The translations under genes were made by a program, and so were the position numbers. Shown here piece by piece: positions 255 to 12,625 of a stretch of DNA of 51,077 nt. Position 1 is the first letter of the stretch, and each line of letters starts with the position of its first letter. Location of the stretch: sequence record ON528718. One strand, 5' to 3'. The notes under the pieces are model-generated. The model worked only from the letters and a program-made list of their open reading frames with translations. It was not told the origin of the DNA and searched no databases. Source of the DNA: Shigella phage ESh4.

Positions 255-280
255 AGGAGGCGTTAAGCCTCCTTTTTGTT
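255..280. terminator. bidirectional intrinsic terminator
   Basis: AGGAGGC-GTTAA-GCCTCCT followed by TTTTGTT; between convergent ORF 57-251 and spanin gene. Confidence 0.6.
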
Positions 281-661
281 GCCTTTGCGGTAGGAAAAGT
301 AAAGCATAGTCAAAAGACCACTGAAAATTGCAGCGCAATAGATTATAGGATCGTACCACTTCCTTTGCTCACCCTGCACGACCTGGATTTTATCAGCCTT
401 GATGGTGTTAGCCTGAATGGTTGACGTAGTAAAATCCTTCTTGCTGGAAGTGTCCACCTTATCAACCGCAGATTCCTTTATTGTAGTTTCCTGTTTTGTA
501 CTGGTGTCCTGCTTTGCGGTAACGCCAACGGCCTGCTTTACGTTCTCCGCTCCTGCCTGTGCTGTGATTTCCGGCTTGCTACCGATTAATCCGGTCAGTG
601 GCTTAACGCTTGAACATCCAGACAAAATAACAGCGATCGCGATTATTGATAACTTTCGCAT
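263..661 (-). CDS. unimolecular spanin (u-spanin-like lipoprotein with C-terminal TMD)
   Basis: N-terminal signal with lipobox LSGC, hydrophobic C-terminal segment; sits distal in holin-endolysin-spanin order as in T1 gp11. Confidence 0.55.
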   Translation of the reverse strand: MRKLSIIAIAVILSGCSSVKPLTGLIGSKPEITAQAGAENVKQAVGVTAKQDTSTKQETTIKESAVDKVDTSSKKDFTTSTIQANTIKADKIQVVQGEQRKWYDPIIYCAAIFSGLLTMLYFSYRKGNKKEA

Positions 662-663
662 AA

Positions 664-1152
664 TTACAGATCCTTAATGCAATATTTAAATTCCACCGCG
701 CGGCGGTTGCGCAGTCCTTTAGACGTTTCTTTCTTTCCAGTTTTTGGATTAGTGTATTTGGTCCATCGCCATAACTGATTGCACGCGTCCATATAACGAC
801 CGTTATTAATCAGCTTAAGCATGGTTGAATTTCTAAATGCACCAGTGCCAGCATTGTATGTGAATGAATACATCGCTGCGCGCATTGTATCAGGAATGTC
901 AACCTTTACACGCTTATCAACTTCATCCTTTGCGATCTTTATATGCTTTGCCAGTAGCGCATTGCACTCTCTCTGTGTGTACGTTTTGCCTGGTATTACG
1001 TCAGGTCCAGTTATTCCGGCGCAAACCGTCCATATCCCAGCAATATCTTTGTACGGCTTATGTTTTACTCCTTCTATTTCCTCCAGTAGCGGAGAAGTAA
1101 GGGCAAGAGCAACGCCAAAAGCCGCAGCGGTCACTCTTTGTTTTATACTCAT
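664..1152 (-). CDS. SAR endolysin, GH24 lysozyme family
   Basis: N-terminal weakly hydrophobic Ala/Gly-rich segment ([17 protein letters not shown]) followed by E-x8-D-x5-T catalytic spacing ([19 protein letters not shown]); start overlaps holin stop. Confidence 0.8.
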
Positions 1153-1367
1153 TATTTACCTCTGATCTCAATAGCTTTCTTAATATCACCGCATTCAAGC
1201 GCGTCACGTAGCGCCTTACTATCACGCCAGCGAAGATAAGCGCCCCACATACCAAATGCAGCCATCAAAACGAAGCTGGCTATTGCGATGGTTGTTTGAC
1301 CAGTTACCGCGCCAGTGATTGACGCGCCGCCAGTTCCGGAAGTTGCAGCGTTTAAAAAATCTTTCAT
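1152..1367 (-). CDS. holin (class III / pinholin-like, 71 aa)
   Basis: Single TMD ([19 protein letters not shown]), charged C-terminus, immediately upstream of the endolysin. Confidence 0.6.
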
Positions 1368-8228: not shown

Positions 8229-8243
8229 ATGTCACTGCTACTT

Positions 8244-8268
8244 TGCCCCGCATTGCGGGGTTTTTTTT
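8244..8268 (+). terminator. rho-independent terminator after primase
   Basis: CCCCGC-ATT-GCGGGG hairpin followed by nine T. Confidence 0.75.
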
Positions 8269-8326
8269 TGCCTTAGCAAATGCTATTATCTGCATTGACA
8301 TTAACATGCAACACGGGAGAAACCGC

Positions 8327-10171
8327 ATGGCAATTTACAGAACCGGACAAGCGTCAATGGACGCTCAAGGTTATATCACTGGATACGACACGAAATGGCG
8401 AGAGCAACTAACGCTCATTCGCCCTGGTGCAACAATCTTTTTCATTGATGCACCATTTCAAGCGGCTGTGATCAGTGAAGTTATCAGCGATACACAAATA
8501 CGCGCTATCACAACTGGCGGCGCTGAAATTGGTAGAAGCAACTACATTATTTTGCTGCATGACTCAATCACTGTTGATGGCCTGGCGCAAGATGTTGCGG
8601 AAACTCTTCGCTACTACCAAAGCAAAGAAACTAAGATCGAGGAAGCTATTGAATTTTTCAAAAACTTTGACCTAAAACACTTGGAAGATCTGGCTAATCA
8701 GGTTAAAGGTGATGCAGAGAAAACGGCAGATGATCGTGCTGCTACTGAACAACTGAAAAACGACACTCAACAGATAAAGGATTCTGCTGTTGCTGAAACA
8801 AACCAGATTAAAGTAGACACTGACGCAATCAAGGAGCAAACGCAACAGATTAAAGATTCTGCGATAACGGAAGTTAATTCCGCACGCGATCAAGGTGTTT
8901 TAGCTGTAAACCAGACTAAAGATCAGGCTGTTTCAGAAATGAATCAGATAAAGGGTGATGTTTCGAATCTGAAAAACGAAGCTATTTCAGCAAGGGATTC
9001 CGCACAGCAATACATGAATGGCGCTCAGGCTGCAAATAGCGCCGCTGAAACTGCAAAAAACGGAGCTGTTACTGCGCGAAATGAGGCTGAAGAATTTGCT
9101 AAAGGCCTTAACGCTGAAAATCTGCTTAGAAAAGATGCGAACCTTTCAGATCTGTCTAACGTTGAAATTGCTCGTAAAAACTTAAAAGTACAGTCCGTTT
9201 ATAGTAAAGATCCAGCGACTAATTCAGATCCAGGGGACTATAATTCTTTCAGAAATCCAAATGAGTCGTATGAACTACGAATATCAAATAACGGAAATTG
9301 GTTAGTGGCTAATAATCAAGATGATTCAGTTTCTGCGCTATCTATTGATGCAGGTGGTACTGGAGCGTCGAATGCTTCTGACGCAAGGAAAAATATTGGA
9401 TTAAGCAATACAGATCATGTTTCATTTGAAGGAGTTAACGCAGCAAACGGTTTCTCTTGTACCGTTAGATCTAGCCCGTGGAGTGTTGGATATGATAACG
9501 CGTCGTTTTCAGGTGGATTGATATTCAATAACGATCATGGTTACGTGCCTATAATTTACGGTGGAACACAATCTACATCAGGTTACAGATTAAGGATGGG
9601 GATGGGCGTCCTTCCAAGCGGGAATACAAGCTGGCCTATGGGATTGATTCAAATCCTCGGAGACGACACATACTGGCGCGTGTTTGCGCTAGGTTACGAT
9701 GGGAATCTTCAAACCTGGACTTCAGAATCAGGCGGATGGACTGGTTCTTACGATTTTGCAAAAAATCCAACGTCTGACAGAGATCTGAAAAAAGACATCG
9801 TTTATACGGATGGAAAAGAAAGTTACGATCGCGTAATGCAATGGCTTCCGACAATGTTTAAGTATAAGCGAGATGATGTTCAGCGTTACGGACTGATTGC
9901 TCAAGACATGTTAAAAATCGATCCTCAATATGTGAAACTTGTACAAGGATCACCAGTATTTGAGGATGTGATCGGGGTTGATGACAATGGTGAAGAATAC
10001 ATTGATCGTCAGATTGAAACTGACAGAAATGATGATACATTGGCGCTTGATAGCAACGTTATGCTAACTGATATGGCTTGCGCTATGGTTTACATGGGAG
10101 GAATGATCGAAAAACAGCAAAAGGAGATAGACGAATTAAAGGCGGCTGTTGCTGCACTGCTCAATAAATAA
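8327..10171 (+). CDS. tail fibre protein with C-terminal intramolecular chaperone (peptidase S74-like) domain
   Basis: Repeated ...QQIKDSA... fibrous segments; C-terminal region (DLKKDIVYTDG...YGLIAQDM...LDSNVMLTDMACAMVYM...coiled coil) resembles the autoproteolytic chaperone domain of T5 pb1/endosialidase; ATG 8327 with GGGAGA RBS. Confidence 0.65.
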   Translation: MAIYRTGQASMDAQGYITGYDTKWREQLTLIRPGATIFFIDAPFQAAVISEVISDTQIRAITTGGAEIGRSNYIILLHDSITVDGLAQDVAETLRYYQSKETKIEEAIEFFKNFDLKHLEDLANQVKGDAEKTADDRAATEQLKNDTQQIKDSAVAETNQIKVDTDAIKEQTQQIKDSAITEVNSARDQGVLAVNQTKDQAVSEMNQIKGDVSNLKNEAISARDSAQQYMNGAQAANSAAETAKNGAVTARNEAEEFAKGLNAENLLRKDANLSDLSNVEIARKNLKVQSVYSKDPATNSDPGDYNSFRNPNESYELRISNNGNWLVANNQDDSVSALSIDAGGTGASNASDARKNIGLSNTDHVSFEGVNAANGFSCTVRSSPWSVGYDNASFSGGLIFNNDHGYVPIIYGGTQSTSGYRLRMGMGVLPSGNTSWPMGLIQILGDDTYWRVFALGYDGNLQTWTSESGGWTGSYDFAKNPTSDRDLKKDIVYTDGKESYDRVMQWLPTMFKYKRDDVQRYGLIAQDMLKIDPQYVKLVQGSPVFEDVIGVDDNGEEYIDRQIETDRNDDTLALDSNVMLTDMACAMVYMGGMIEKQQKEIDELKAAVAALLNK

Positions 10172-10186
10172 CAATATTTTTAACTC

Positions 10187-10212
10187 AAGCGCGGCTCATG
10201 CTGCGCTTTTTT
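10187..10212 (+). terminator. rho-independent terminator after tail fibre gene
   Basis: AAGCGC...GCGCTT hairpin followed by TTTTTT. Confidence 0.6.
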
Positions 10213-10349
10213 CGCCTTTATGCCAGTTGCTTACATATCGCTTACAAATGTTTTATATCTATTCCTGACAGTTAGGCGCATACTCTTTGTCGTAACATAA
10301 ATGTTGCAAACTTTTTTTTAATTTTTTTAACGTCAAAGAGGAATTTACT

Positions 10350-11048
10350 ATGTCAGATATGACTTTACTCCCTACTGGTGGTGGTTTTGGTGGCGAAGCT
10401 GGCGCGGCTGGTCTTGGCGGTGCTGTTGGCGGCCTGATTGGGTCATGGTTTGGTAACGGCTTTAATGGTCGTGGTGGTTATGGTGGTGATGGTGCGGCTG
10501 TTGCTGTCGGTGCTAACGCTGTTCTTGATGGTATTAATAACATCCAGACGGGTGTAAACAACCTGGGTCTGCAAACTCTGCAAGGCCAAAACTCCACAAA
10601 CCTTGCCGTTGAGCGCTCCGCCGCATCAACCTTTAACGGCATTACCAGCCAGAATACGCAAAACCTGCTTGCATCGGTGCAAGGCTTCGCCGGACTGAAT
10701 ACCGCGATTGTTAGCGGTACTAACCAGACGGTTGCTGCGATTAATGCTGCTGATGTTAATGCTCTTGAACGTTCCTATCAGGCACAGATTGCAGCGGAGA
10801 GATGTTGCTGCGAGACTAACCTGAACATTGAGCGGCAAGGTAACGCAACGCGAGATCTGATTCGCCAACAGTTTGCTGATTCTCAGGCTGTTTTGATTTG
10901 CGATATGAAAGCTCAGTTGCAGGAGGCTCGTTTTGCTCTTTCTCAGGCAAACCAGACCGCCGCGCTGAATTGCAAAATCAACCAGGTCGAGCAACTGGTA
11001 AACTTCAAGTTGCCTACTCCTCAGACTCCGCCTACTGGCTGTTGCTGA
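10350..11048 (+). CDS. glycine-rich protein with Cys-rich C-terminus
   Basis: N-terminal 80 aa almost pure Gly/Ala (GGGFGGEAGAAGLGG...), central Q/N/T-rich segment, CCC and terminal GCC motifs; AAGAGGA RBS. Confidence 0.5.
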   Translation: MSDMTLLPTGGGFGGEAGAAGLGGAVGGLIGSWFGNGFNGRGGYGGDGAAVAVGANAVLDGINNIQTGVNNLGLQTLQGQNSTNLAVERSAASTFNGITSQNTQNLLASVQGFAGLNTAIVSGTNQTVAAINAADVNALERSYQAQIAAERCCCETNLNIERQGNATRDLIRQQFADSQAVLICDMKAQLQEARFALSQANQTAALNCKINQVEQLVNFKLPTPQTPPTGCC

Positions 11049-11100
11049 TGCTAATAAATCAAGCGCCTTTCGGGGCGCTTTTTTATAAGGGGATATACTC

Positions 11101-11424
11101 ATGAAAATTCGTGTCGCTGGCTATCATTTACCGCGCGTGCATTTGCCGCGAGTAGTAATTGGAGGGAATGGCTATGATGGAGATTATGAACGAGATCATG
11201 AACATGATTCAGTTATGGGAAGTGTTATTGAAAGAACTAAGCACTATCCTAAAACCTGGGACGCGCACATTGACAAGCCAGGCGGCTTAATGTCGATTGT
11301 AGAAATGGAATACAAAGAGCTAATGACCGAAAAGGCAGACGGCTCGCATCATGGCATTGAGAAAGAATTAACCGATCTTGCTGCCGCTTGTATCTGCGCA
11401 TTGCGTAAAATGAAATCAATGTAA
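11101..11424 (+). CDS. hypothetical protein (possible MazG-like acidic motif, weak)
   Basis: ORF with GGGGA RBS; EMEYKE / EKELTD acidic motifs only weakly suggestive. Confidence 0.4.
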   Translation: MKIRVAGYHLPRVHLPRVVIGGNGYDGDYERDHEHDSVMGSVIERTKHYPKTWDAHIDKPGGLMSIVEMEYKELMTEKADGSHHGIEKELTDLAAACICALRKMKSM

Positions 11425-11438
11425 CAAGGTGAACCGAT

Positions 11439-11930
11439 ATGCAAAACATTAATCAAAATGGCGCTGGAGTGACTCAATTCAACGGGATGAGGCCGAAACA
11501 AATCATTGAGATTGGAGGCGTTAAATGGTCGTTACGGCGTGATGCTACTGATTCATCAATGGCGTTTCCTCACCAGAAAGTAAACTGGCTTAACGCTGGA
11601 TGTGAACCTCTTGACGGCAACATTCATTATTGTTGGATAATGGGCGTAATTGCGCCAAATATGGGTACTCTTGAGCGTCCGGCTAATGTGATGTATATCG
11701 GTTTTCATCAACAGAGGATCATGATCGCACCAAATAGCGTTACTGTTGCAGATCTAGACAGGATGCATGTTTATGTAAGCGATAGCTCAAATTTTGTTGG
11801 TGAGTTTGTAGGAAAGTTTTTAGGAATTGAACCTGAAAAGCCAGTAGCAGAAAGGGAATCAATTAGCCCGTGGCCTGTAATGCCAGAACAGCAATCAACT
11901 CCTGAAGGAAAAGAAAATGACGAAAATTGA
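11439..11930 (+). CDS. hypothetical protein (163 aa)
   Basis: ORF with AAGGTGA RBS. Confidence 0.5.
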   Translation: MQNINQNGAGVTQFNGMRPKQIIEIGGVKWSLRRDATDSSMAFPHQKVNWLNAGCEPLDGNIHYCWIMGVIAPNMGTLERPANVMYIGFHQQRIMIAPNSVTVADLDRMHVYVSDSSNFVGEFVGKFLGIEPEKPVAERESISPWPVMPEQQSTPEGKENDEN

Positions 11931-12174
11931 AGGAATTGATCAGGTAGTTAAAGACCTGTCAGAGAGAGCGCATACAATAGCTGATGAGGGTCATTCGCCA
12001 ATATCAATAATGAAATCAGCAATGTCAGATTTTAACGGGCTTGGAAGTATGAGCGGAATGTTGTCAATAATGACCACTGGAAAACTTAACGCTCATCAAA
12101 CTGAACTTGCAAAGCGAATTGCTGTTAAGGTTATTGCCGTGCTTGGGATGGCTGAAAGTGAAAAAGGGGCGTAA
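11917..12174 (+). CDS. hypothetical protein (85 aa)
   Basis: ORF overlapping previous stop; ends in loop of terminator 12161-12186. Confidence 0.5.
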   Translation: MTKIEGIDQVVKDLSERAHTIADEGHSPISIMKSAMSDFNGLGSMSGMLSIMTTGKLNAHQTELAKRIAVKVIAVLGMAESEKGA

Positions 12175-12186
12175 TGCCCCTTTTTT
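12161..12186. terminator. bidirectional intrinsic terminator
   Basis: AAAAA-GGGGC-GTAAT-GCCCC-TTTTTT between convergent genes. Confidence 0.7.
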
Positions 12187-12625
12187 ATGCGTTTAACCCT
12201 TCTCCGTTATCTCTATGCCATTGCTTATGGTGTGCTTGGCATAACCATCTAACTGATAAAGGTTTGCTGTAATCGTCATGGTGTGCAACTGATTTTTCAC
12301 TACCGCAAATTTCACACGGTGATTTTTCCACCTTCCCATCACGTAATGCGTTATTCAATGCATTGTGTGCCTTATACTTTCCTGGAAATTTATTTCTCCA
12401 TTGTTTTAAATATTCTTTGTCTTGCCGGTTTCCTCTTTTTTTATCGTAATCTCTTTTTTCATCTATGTTATCCCATCTGTTTTTTGTGACATCTTTTTTT
12501 GTACATTCTTTGCACTTATTTAAGTGTCCATCAGCCATCCGTTTATGCTTATAAAATTCTTTAAGGGGCTTTACAGCCCCGCATTTAAAGCATTTCTTAA
12601 AGCGCATAGATTCGATGTTTTCCAT
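12185..12625 (-). CDS. HNH homing endonuclease
   Basis: N-terminal Cys pairs (CFKCG...CKEC) and HNH core (CEICG...VAHHDDYSKPL...WLCQAHH). Confidence 0.75.
   Translation of the reverse strand: MENIESMRFKKCFKCGAVKPLKEFYKHKRMADGHLNKCKECTKKDVTKNRWDNIDEKRDYDKKRGNRQDKEYLKQWRNKFPGKYKAHNALNNALRDGKVEKSPCEICGSEKSVAHHDDYSKPLSVRWLCQAHHKQWHRDNGEGLNA

Follow-up and report, generated by a model that had tools for sequence, protein, structure and literature searches.

A cross-phylum family of phage proteins with a glycine-zipper N-terminus, a long predicted helix and a tri-cysteine motif, encoded beside the tail-fibre gene of Shigella phage ESh4

Introduction

The HK97 moron protein gp15, lactococcal Sie2009 and T4 Imm are bitopic phage membrane proteins that exclude superinfecting phage, and they provide a useful point of comparison for the gene considered here (gene A), which occupies positions 10350 to 11048 of a 51,077-nucleotide stretch of DNA from Shigella phage ESh4 (sequence record ON528718; the whole stretch is referred to below as the window). 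Like the genes for those proteins, gene A is a small-to-medium, nonessential, moron-like gene that has its own putative promoter and a terminator, lies at a module border, is patchily distributed among related phages, and encodes a product with a candidate N-terminal hydrophobic anchor. However, there is no detectable homology between them, and the three known proteins lack the 166-residue predicted coiled coil, the near-invariant CCC motif, and the Cys-tipped Pro/Thr tail of the gene A product.

A second point of comparison is the glycine-zipper transmembrane motif, reportedly defined by Kim and co-workers in 2005, which is typical of homo-oligomeric channels. The SlyB hairpin, the VacA N-terminus, CdzC/D, and the class II microcins share with the gene A protein a GxxxGxxxGxxxG pattern in a small-residue-rich, weakly hydrophobic segment, but in gene A the zipper occupies no more than the first 15% of the protein, ahead of a very long helix. 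The protein also lacks a signal peptide, a lipobox, and a double-glycine leader, and in distant relatives an aromatic transmembrane (TM) helix takes the place of the zipper. The i-spanins, exemplified by lambda Rz, likewise combine an N-terminal membrane segment with a long coiled coil and Cys residues available for possible interchain disulfides; moreover, a rod of ~25 nm, as predicted for gene A, would span the Gram-negative periplasm, and its Pro-rich, Cys-bearing end recalls Rz1. Gene A differs from the i-spanins in that the lysis cassette of the window already contains a u-spanin, no lipoprotein gene is embedded in or adjacent to gene A, homologues occur in phages of monoderm Clostridium, and phage JakobBernoulli lyses its host without an intact gene A.

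Here we describe the family to which gene A belongs and weigh what its product might do. Our best explanation, which we hold tentatively and at somewhat less than even confidence, is that gene A encodes an abundant, nonessential, nonvirion protein, an oligomeric coiled coil that is anchored in the membrane and works at the envelope of the infected host cell.

Results

Gene A is a functional member of a very large family

The list of ORFs (open reading frames) and direct reading of the sequence showed the 232-codon ORF to lie exactly at the position given in the initial annotation and to encode the N- and C-terminal sequences quoted there (Table 1). A search of a collection of 5.8 billion proteins returned 230 homologues, each of ~230 residues, a profile search matched the family to 121 representative clusters, and the pairwise ratio of nonsynonymous to synonymous substitution rates (dN/dS) against 26 homologous loci was 0.0 to 0.23, with the Gly-rich N-terminus constrained too. 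The homologous proteins of phages slyngel and egaa are 100% and 99.6% identical, respectively, to that of gene A. We concluded from the homologues, the clusters, and the dN/dS values that gene A is a functional gene under strong purifying selection and not a chance ORF.

The protein matches PHROG 9288, a family annotated "unknown function," over its full length (residues 1-232; E = 1.6e-123). All 40 diverse relatives that we compared match the same family, 17 of them also match PHROG 16490, and a distant homologue in one of the homologous loci (L077) matches PHROG 16490 with an E value of 6e-35. Searches of Pfam, NCBIfam, PADLOC, and the PDB (the last with both the single sequence and a profile) returned no homologue of the gene A protein, in agreement with the earlier suggestion that it is of an unrecognised type. 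A Foldseek search of BFVD with an AlphaFold2 (AF2) model of the protein returned no matches either, an empty result attributable to the fact that a single helix is uninformative.

In a collection of cultured phages, gene A is found in 231 records, and the lineages that carry it include Hanrivervirus-type T1-like phages, the 9g-like Nonagvirus and Seuratvirus, Edwardsiella phage eiAU, the group of Yersinia myovirus PY100, and T5-like Epseptimavirus. When a homologue from a gut viral contig was used as the query, it matched at least 6,902 sequence clusters, nearly all of them from uncultured Caudoviricetes of ~50 kb, as well as six Clostridium perfringens phages; the label on these gut-phage and Clostridium relatives is everywhere "hypothetical." Two records of the cultured-phage collection, MG065637.1 and MG065675.1 ("Campylobacter phage A15b/A118," host C. 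jejuni), contain a 99% identical copy of gene A with matching flanks, so that either their names or their stated hosts seem untrustworthy. The sequence of gene A is not new, being annotated as hypothetical across many genomes; what is new here is that its relatives are seen to form one superfamily that crosses phyla, has a definable architecture and a near-invariant CCC motif, and stands apart from the tail fibre.

The N-terminus carries a conserved glycine zipper

Three alignments, one of 31 close relatives, one of 40 distant relatives, and one of a mixed set of 82, were used to read the architecture of the family. The protein opens with a conserved tag, M-[ST]-D-M-x-L-[LI]-P (MSDMTLLP in the gene A protein), followed by a small-residue-rich hydrophobic segment in which the Gly residues are spaced as a zipper, G23-x3-G27-x3-G31-x3-G35, within the sequence GGLIGSWFGNG. 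Zipper residues G27 and G31 do not vary among the 31 close homologues and have a conservation of at least 90% in the set of 82, and the N-terminal segment is the hydropathy maximum of the protein in 74 of these 82 members. The (G/A/S)xxxGxxxG pattern found in this hydrophobic segment was the only named feature, among those of the families tested, that the protein possesses, and the family profile gave a weak match to the glycine-zipper segment of SlyB (E = 0.88). In the gut-phage and Clostridium homologues, a true TM helix stands at the position of the zipper (e.g., TWVWVFFLFFLLAW and AWIFFLFFLLAW; mean Kyte-Doolittle [KD] hydropathy over 15 residues, 1.85), and the W-G-G-x-G-F-G linker that follows the TM helix in these distant proteins is the same linker that follows the zipper. 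AF2 assigned residues 1 to 54 a predicted local distance difference test (pLDDT) score of <50, so that they are predicted to be disordered in isolation, as a monomer, even though they are conserved, hydrophobic, and zipper patterned.

The initial annotation had described the N-terminus as ~80 residues of almost pure Gly/Ala. The tract is in fact ~48 residues long (residues 10-57), and residues 1 to 60 contain 35% Gly and 15% Ala together with conserved L, I, V, F, and W. We propose, from these sequence features, that residues 1 to 54 serve as a membrane anchor and oligomerisation element. Of the suggestion that the protein interacts with the host envelope, this much is plausible, given the conserved hydrophobic glycine-zipper N-terminus.

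A single long helix carries the tri-cysteine motif

From the 82-sequence alignment, AF2 predicted one uninterrupted helix of 166 residues (~25 nm) from residue 55 to residue 220, with pLDDT values of >90 for residues ~120 to 210 and with both ends disordered; the 31 close sequences gave the same topology with lower confidence (pLDDT, 58). Structure prediction had been suggested as a means to distinguish a fibre from a bacteriocin-like fold, and the result was one long helix with no predicted receptor-binding hairpin. The helix contains the conserved motifs QGFAGLNT, CCCETN (CCC(E)T in the family), EG.ATR.LI, and LICD (L(I)CD(A)K in the family). It had been credited with heptad-like character, but no 3.5-residue periodicity was found; the family-averaged hydropathy instead peaks at a period of 3.65 to 3.70 residues between positions 61 and 155 and at 3.35 residues between positions 151 and 220.

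The Cys residues of the CCC and GCC motifs noted previously are at positions 152 to 154 and 231 to 232, respectively, and together with C184 and C208 they account for the seven Cys residues of the protein. The CCC motif is at least 90% conserved among the 82 sequences, which range from 21 to 87% identity, and is retained by the Clostridium phage homologues. C153 and C208 lie 55 residues apart (i+55) on a recurrent hydrophobic position of an ~11-residue repeat, and on the predicted helix both would face the axis of a parallel oligomer. C208 and the terminal GCC are gained or lost jointly (both are missing in 9 of the 31 close homologues), and the three family members that lack CCC also lack C184. 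The tail itself is variable: distant members carry Cys/Gly- or Cys/His-rich versions (GCGNNCGC, FCCNPCGC, and CHNGCHGCC) and have a median of 10 Cys residues.

Gene A has its own expression signals

Gene A was initially placed directly after the tail-fibre gene, and it is indeed the next gene, but a terminator and a promoter-like region with a 5' hairpin intervene (Table 1). The terminator hairpin downstream of the tail-fibre gene has a 9-bp stem and a folding energy of -15.7 kcal/mol (RNAfold), and phage JenP1 has an equivalent terminator. The promoter-like site consists of a -10-like hexamer, at the position of which diverged homologous loci have TATACT, TATGCT, TAGAAT, TATTCT, or TAAATT, and several of these loci have good -35 boxes (e.g., TTGTCA-16-TAGAAT). 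Because a consensus scan of the window did not report the site at 10279-10284, we regard this promoter as putative. Just downstream of the hexamer is a short stem-loop. When aligned windows hand-picked around this hairpin were compared across 13 diverged loci, four of its five base pairs were found to have undergone compensatory double changes and none was broken (GTAAC/GTTAC, GTAGC/GCTAC, GTGGC/GCCAC), which suggests that it probably serves gene A either as a palindromic operator or as a hairpin that stabilises the mRNA at its 5' end. The strong ribosome-binding site claimed for the gene was confirmed, and an intrinsic terminator follows the stop codon; in JenP1, Yersinia phage X1, eiAU, and the homologous loci L007, L011, and L013, too, gene A and its downstream neighbour have a hairpin or terminator between them. 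The flanking terminators, the promoter-like site, the 5' hairpin, and the strong Shine-Dalgarno sequence therefore indicate that gene A is separately controlled and probably highly expressed.

Adjacency to the tail fibre is positional, and gene A is dispensable

In T1-like, 9g-like, eiAU, and T5-like genomes, as in a contig of a gut siphovirus, gene A follows the gene for the lateral tail fibre. In myovirus PY100, the cassette that contains gene A (ORF29-32) lies at 10 to 12 kb, beside dam and ssb, and the tail-fibre genes lie at 37 to 41 kb, >25 kb away. In C. perfringens phage vB_CpeS-17DYC, the gene is found 14 genes past the holin gene, among early genes and ahead of the genes for recombination, ThyX, and single-stranded DNA-binding protein (SSB). 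What gene A does border, in nearly every lineage, is a set of replication, recombination, or nucleotide metabolism genes: those for SSB and a recombinase in the window, dam and ssb in PY100, DNA polymerase in JenP1, RecT/YqaJ in L007, recombination proteins, ThyX, and SSB in 17DYC, and primase in L086.

Phages without a functional gene A were also found. T1 has its tail-fibre gene, then a bidirectional terminator and the SSB gene, and no cassette; Sfin-1 lacks gene A and has no room for the cassette. JakobBernoulli (BASEL phage Bas07; MZ501079.1; locus L001, 6734-7441) has an in-frame TAA at codon 78 of gene A, as a result of which the gene is annotated there in two pieces, a "hypothetical protein" and, for the C-terminal half, a "putative sugar-binding protein"; we found no support for the latter label. 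JakobBernoulli forms plaques robustly on Escherichia coli K-12 and on K-12 with restored O16 antigen (PMC8594841). T5-like Salmonella phages have a pseudogene copy downstream of ltf; that of phage rokbiter (L015, 3788-4510), for example, has an in-frame stop codon and a frameshift and has lost CCC, and SE24 and many other T5-like phages retain gene A fragments only. Such decayed relics, right after the L-shaped tail-fibre gene, were seen in ~90 T5-like Epseptimavirus records, and they may have been left behind when tail-fibre modules were exchanged with T1-like or 9g-like phages.

No match to fibre families was obtained for the gene A protein, the only other PHROG match being a weak one to a tape measure family (E = 0.007). 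Derivation of gene A from the tape measure or tail-fibre gene of the window was rejected, since BLASTP found only short Gly-rich pieces in common. The idea that the product is a virion-associated or tail-fibre protein was thus not supported, given the separate expression unit, the locations in PY100 and 17DYC, the absence of the gene from T1, the stop codon in Bas07, and the T5-like relics. We concluded that gene A is a dispensable accessory gene and, as far as comparison of these genomes can tell, that its adjacency to the tail fibre is positional only.

Gene A heads a four-gene cassette in phages of Gram-negative hosts

Downstream of gene A are three small conserved genes, B, C, and D, and each of the four is homologous across this phage (cassette at 10350-12174), JenP1, Yersinia phages X1 and PY100, eiAU, and a metagenomic contig. 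A homologous gene B follows gene A in JenP1, X1, eiAU, L013, and L011; all 31 of the close viral loci contain A, B, and C together, and 28 of them have D as well. In the phage collection, the distributions of A and C are equal except for the ~90 T5-like phages that have A alone (231 versus 139 records). The N-terminal half of the B protein is rich in His in all lineages, and the protein also has a conserved helix pair, ExExxE...ExExxD. A MazG-like identity for gene B was entertained and rejected, the ExxE...ExxD pattern having been seen by eye only and having no profile support. Neither family nor PDB matches were found for genes B, C, and D, and PADLOC gave no match for any of A to D at E values of up to 1.

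In the Firmicute-phage branch, the neighbours of gene A are different: two proteins with low-complexity N-termini rich in Met, Gln, Asn, and Pro are encoded upstream, and a weakly BclA_C-like protein is encoded downstream. No relationship of these proteins to B, C, or D was detected (hhalign probabilities of ≤0.5%). Because this branch pairs A with unrelated neighbours, B to D are not universal partners of A. In the loci L077 (3723-6822) and L099 (6277-9138), from a gut phage and a C. perfringens phage, the downstream BclA_C-like protein contains Cys, and a helical protein of ~175 to 200 residues is also encoded downstream; the L077 module is preceded by a gene for a 76-residue protein that consists of sigma-70 region 4 only.

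Comparison with families of known function

Several known families were compared with gene A and rejected. The initial annotation had likened the Gly-rich N-terminus to the translocation domains of colicins and bacteriocins. Colicin T domains resemble gene A in that a long helical region comes after a Gly-rich N-terminus but differ from it in that no receptor-binding hairpin is predicted for gene A and in that its Gly tract is hydrophobic and conserved rather than variable. A translocation, receptor-binding, and cytotoxic (T-R-C) organisation did not hold up: there is no Pfam or NCBIfam cytotoxic domain, only a 12-residue Pro/Thr/Cys tail follows the helix, the neighbours (B, C, D, and the tail fibre) have no family match for immunity, lysis, or export functions, and the Gly tract is a hydrophobic GxxxG zipper that is replaced by a TM helix in distant homologues. 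A double-glycine leader, as in microcin precursors, was rejected by eye, since the tag is too short and distant members have no conserved cleavage context. A gp38-type adhesin was rejected on the grounds that the Gly tract is N-terminal and conserved, that the C-terminal two thirds of the protein is one helix, and that there is no Pfam or PHROG adhesin match. A tail fibre, needle, or fibritin was not supported, given the lack of family similarity and the location outside the structural module in PY100 and 17DYC, and an i- or u-spanin was rejected in view of the location outside the lysis cassette, the absence of a lipobox ORF inside or adjoining gene A, and the homologues in six C. perfringens phages.

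The influenza HA2 protein resembles gene A in that a Gly/Ala-rich hydrophobic N-terminal peptide leads straight into a long coiled coil (phmmer E, ~0.05), but gene A has no C-terminal membrane anchor, second heptad region, hairpin, or precursor cleavage. The resemblance is probably compositional, since the matches (residues 23-77; window positions 10350-10580), the sole ones to PDB sequences, vanish when a profile is used as the query. A class I fusion protein was rejected, the helix of gene A being single and uninterrupted and the protein lacking both a hairpin and a hydrophobic segment at its C-terminus.

The phage and the neighbourhood of gene A

The window is from a T1-like siphovirus (Drexlerviridae, Tempevirinae, Hanrivervirus type) that shares 92 to 96% nucleotide identity with Shigella phage SFP17 and with vojen, slyngel, and JakobBernoulli, which are Escherichia/Salmonella phages. 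The ORF of the lateral tail-fibre gene begins mechanically at a TTG codon at position 8243, but none of the tail-fibre PHROG profiles aligns upstream of residue 29 (MAIYRTGQ...), so that translation probably starts at the ATG near position 8327. On the 3' side of gene A, the three small cassette genes are followed by an HNH-type ORF on the other strand and by convergent SSB, recombinase, and exonuclease genes. The HNH-type ORF (146 residues; 12185-12625, minus strand), between gene D and the SSB gene, has Cys pairs and an HNH-like motif (CEICGS...HHDDYSKP...CQAHHKQWH), and it looks like an inserted homing endonuclease gene because in JakobBernoulli gene D is directly followed by the SSB gene. 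The lysis cassette of the window is complete (holin, endolysin, and u-spanin; 263-1367, minus strand) and lies ~9 kb away from gene A.

Table 1. Features of gene A and its surroundings in the window
Feature	Position	Strand	Description
Gene A	10350-11048	+	ATG at 10350, stop codon 11046-11048; 232 residues; PHROG 9288 member
Residues 1-54	10350-10511	+	N-terminal tag, hydrophobic glycine-zipper segment (17-37), Gly/aromatic linker
Residues 55-220	10512-11009	+	One continuous amphipathic alpha-helix (predicted; AF2, 82-sequence alignment)
Tri-cysteine codons 152-154	10803-10811	+	TGT TGC TGC; near-invariant
Residues 221-232 and stop codon	11010-11048	+	Pro/Thr-rich tail LPTPQTPPTGCC; variable in the family
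Shine-Dalgarno sequence of gene A	10335-10342	+	AAAGAGGA, 7 nt 5' of the ATG; sequence read directly
-10-like hexamer	10279-10284	+	CATACT; promoter-like site for gene A, weak -35 in this phage
Stem-loop	10292-10307	+	GTAACA-TAAA-TGTTGC; 7 nt after the -10-like hexamer; sole match to the motif in the window
Terminator hairpin 3' of the tail-fibre gene	10187-10212	+	AAGCGCGGC-TCAT-GCTGCGCTT, then T run
Intrinsic terminator right after gene A	11061-11085	+	AAGCGCC-TTTC-GGGGCGCTT, then TTTTT (terminator scan, RNAfold)
Gene B	11101-11424	+	Second cassette gene; 107 residues; PHROG 9157; His-rich N-terminal half, conserved C-terminal helix pair
Gene C	11439-11930	+	Third cassette gene; 163 residues; PHROG 8329
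Gene D	11917-12174	+	Fourth cassette gene; 85 residues
Lateral tail-fibre gene	8243-10171	+	Upstream of gene A; Peptidase_S74 intramolecular chaperone at C-terminus
Holin gene	1152-1367	-	Lysis cassette
Endolysin gene	664-1152	-	Lysis cassette
u-spanin gene	263-661	-	T1 gp11-like; lipobox LSGC and C-terminal TM helix

Discussion

The order of elements in the gene A protein, a short acidic N-tail, a hydrophobic segment, a Gly/aromatic linker, a 166-residue amphipathic helix, and a Pro/Thr tail ending in Cys, suggests how a membrane-anchored coiled coil of the kind we favour might be built. The N-terminal segment would insert into the cytoplasmic membrane, where its GxxxG faces would drive homo-oligomerisation, and the long helices would then form a parallel coiled-coil stalk with core residues C153 and C208 facing the oligomer axis. 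There, the core cysteines could lock the oligomer through interchain disulfides or a shared metal ion. A protein of this kind would be a stoichiometric device at the envelope rather than an enzyme, and by analogy with moron-type membrane proteins its most likely role class would be control of membrane traffic or occupancy, of the superinfection exclusion type, possibly together with B to D.

Several observations weigh against this explanation. In the gene A protein itself, the zipper segment is only marginally hydrophobic (KD, 1.13; summed insertion cost on the Hessa scale, ~+5 kcal/mol), so that spontaneous or Sec/YidC-dependent insertion is not assured. The evidence on topology is contradictory: in the homologues with a true TM helix, the charges on its flanks (N-tail net charge, ~-3; C-flank, ~-1) weakly favour an N-out/C-in orientation, whereas composition favours C-out. 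The helix is rich in Gln, Asn, Thr, Ser, and Ala and poor in charge (38% QNST and 13% charged residues), which, like the Pro/Thr-rich tail, is more typical of extracellular or virion fibre proteins. The AF2 model is of a monomer and cannot show the oligomeric state, and no phenotype supports superinfection exclusion specifically. Finally, we found no virion proteome covering gene A in the literature; the only proteome found was that of Sfin-1, a phage without the gene, the eiAU paper contains no mass spectrometry, and the GenBank record of PY100 flags no virion proteins.

These same features bear on other explanations, the first of which is an accessory virion fibre or whisker. In this case, the protein would be a trimer that forms a 25-nm, Cys-cross-linked coiled-coil fibre on the tail or head. 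Fibres that are dispensable in the laboratory exist, as the head fibres of phi29 and the side tail fibres of lambda show, and a decoration protein would be compatible with the dispensability of gene A. Its place behind the lateral tail-fibre gene in the T1-like and other genomes listed above and in the gut siphovirus contig, the low-charge, Q/N/T/S/A-rich composition of its one long helix, expression signals that suit an abundant product, and the weak similarity of the next gene in Firmicute phages to BclA_C, a TNF-like knob, all fit such a fibre. However, the gene is far from the tail-fibre genes and beside dam and ssb in PY100 and is among early and replication genes in 17DYC, it is missing from T1 and Sfin-1, a terminator separates it from the fibre gene, and its product has no similarity to the adjoining fibre or to any fibre family. 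Moreover, a membrane-type hydrophobic N-terminus, which thousands of relatives have as a true TM helix, is unexpected for a fibre, and we consider this explanation unlikely. The N-out/C-in orientation hinted at by the flank charges would instead suit a membrane tether or organiser of the replication and recombination module, for which p16.7 of phi29 offers an analogy: the coiled coil and the Cys tail would be cytoplasmic, would bind metal, and would recruit the cassette partners or replication proteins. The replication, recombination, or nucleotide metabolism genes that border gene A in nearly all lineages agree with this idea, and the GCC, GCGNNCGC, and CHNGCHGCC tails, along with the His-rich B protein, would fit metal binding in a reducing compartment. 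Yet the helix is not basic (6.9% D/E versus 6.2% K/R) and has no DNA-binding motif or domain match, its composition is atypical of cytoplasmic coiled coils, and the border position may mirror nothing more than the gathering of accessory genes at module junctions; a tether of this kind seems very unlikely.

The weak hydrophobicity of the zipper segment, too low for cotranslational insertion and reminiscent of pore-forming and fusion peptides that insert posttranslationally, raises the alternative of a lysis-stage or released membrane disruptor, a category into which the bacteriocin idea of the initial annotation also falls. The protein would remain a soluble cytoplasmic rod until holin triggering or lysis, whereupon the zipper tip would insert into a membrane in the manner of a fusion peptide, a microcin, or a "disruptin," and the protein would be oxidised to a cross-linked oligomer, as its cysteines would be outside the cytoplasm. 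The weak PDB matches of residues 23 to 77 to the HA2 fusion peptide and the start of its coiled coil (E, ~0.05) point the same way but are nonsignificant and are lost with a profile query. A complete holin-endolysin-u-spanin cassette is already present in the window, 9 kb away, family members are common among the phages that infect C. perfringens, a monoderm in which there is no outer membrane step, distant members have a constitutive TM anchor, and family searches of A and its neighbours revealed neither a toxin domain nor a gene for immunity or export; we give a disruptor little credence. Lastly, gene A could encode the membrane effector of a phage-borne competitor exclusion cassette of the abortive infection type, in which A would be a latent glycine-zipper pore and B to D its sensor and regulators. 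Consistent with this, the four genes are coinherited across Drexlerviridae, Nonagvirus/Seuratvirus, eiAU, PY100, and metagenomic phages, they occupy an accessory hot spot between convergent operons that is left empty in T1, and glycine zippers are, as mentioned above, typical of homo-oligomeric channels. Against it stand the lack of a PADLOC match for any of A to D, the unrelated neighbours of A in the Firmicute-phage branch, the terminator between A and B to D, and the signals for an abundant product, which would be unusual for a latent toxin, and we regard such a cassette as very unlikely.

Returning to the membrane-anchored coiled coil, a bolder form of it would be a new phage-host membrane device, represented by a very large cross-phylum membrane protein family in which one membrane segment is joined to a 25-nm coiled coil bearing a tri-cysteine ring. 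We think this unlikely as it stands. The possible forms of the device include a redox- or metal-gated oligomeric pore and a tether that couples the membrane to the early or replication programme. The family is large and tractable: thousands of gut phage genomes encode a member, as do coliphages amenable to experiment, among which Bas07 supplies a nonsense mutant that arose naturally. For annotation, gene A should not be named a tail-fibre accessory protein or "sugar-binding protein," and the T5-like relics should be treated as pseudogenes. If the membrane device is real, gene A would provide a name and a testable function for one of the larger orphan protein families of tailed phages.

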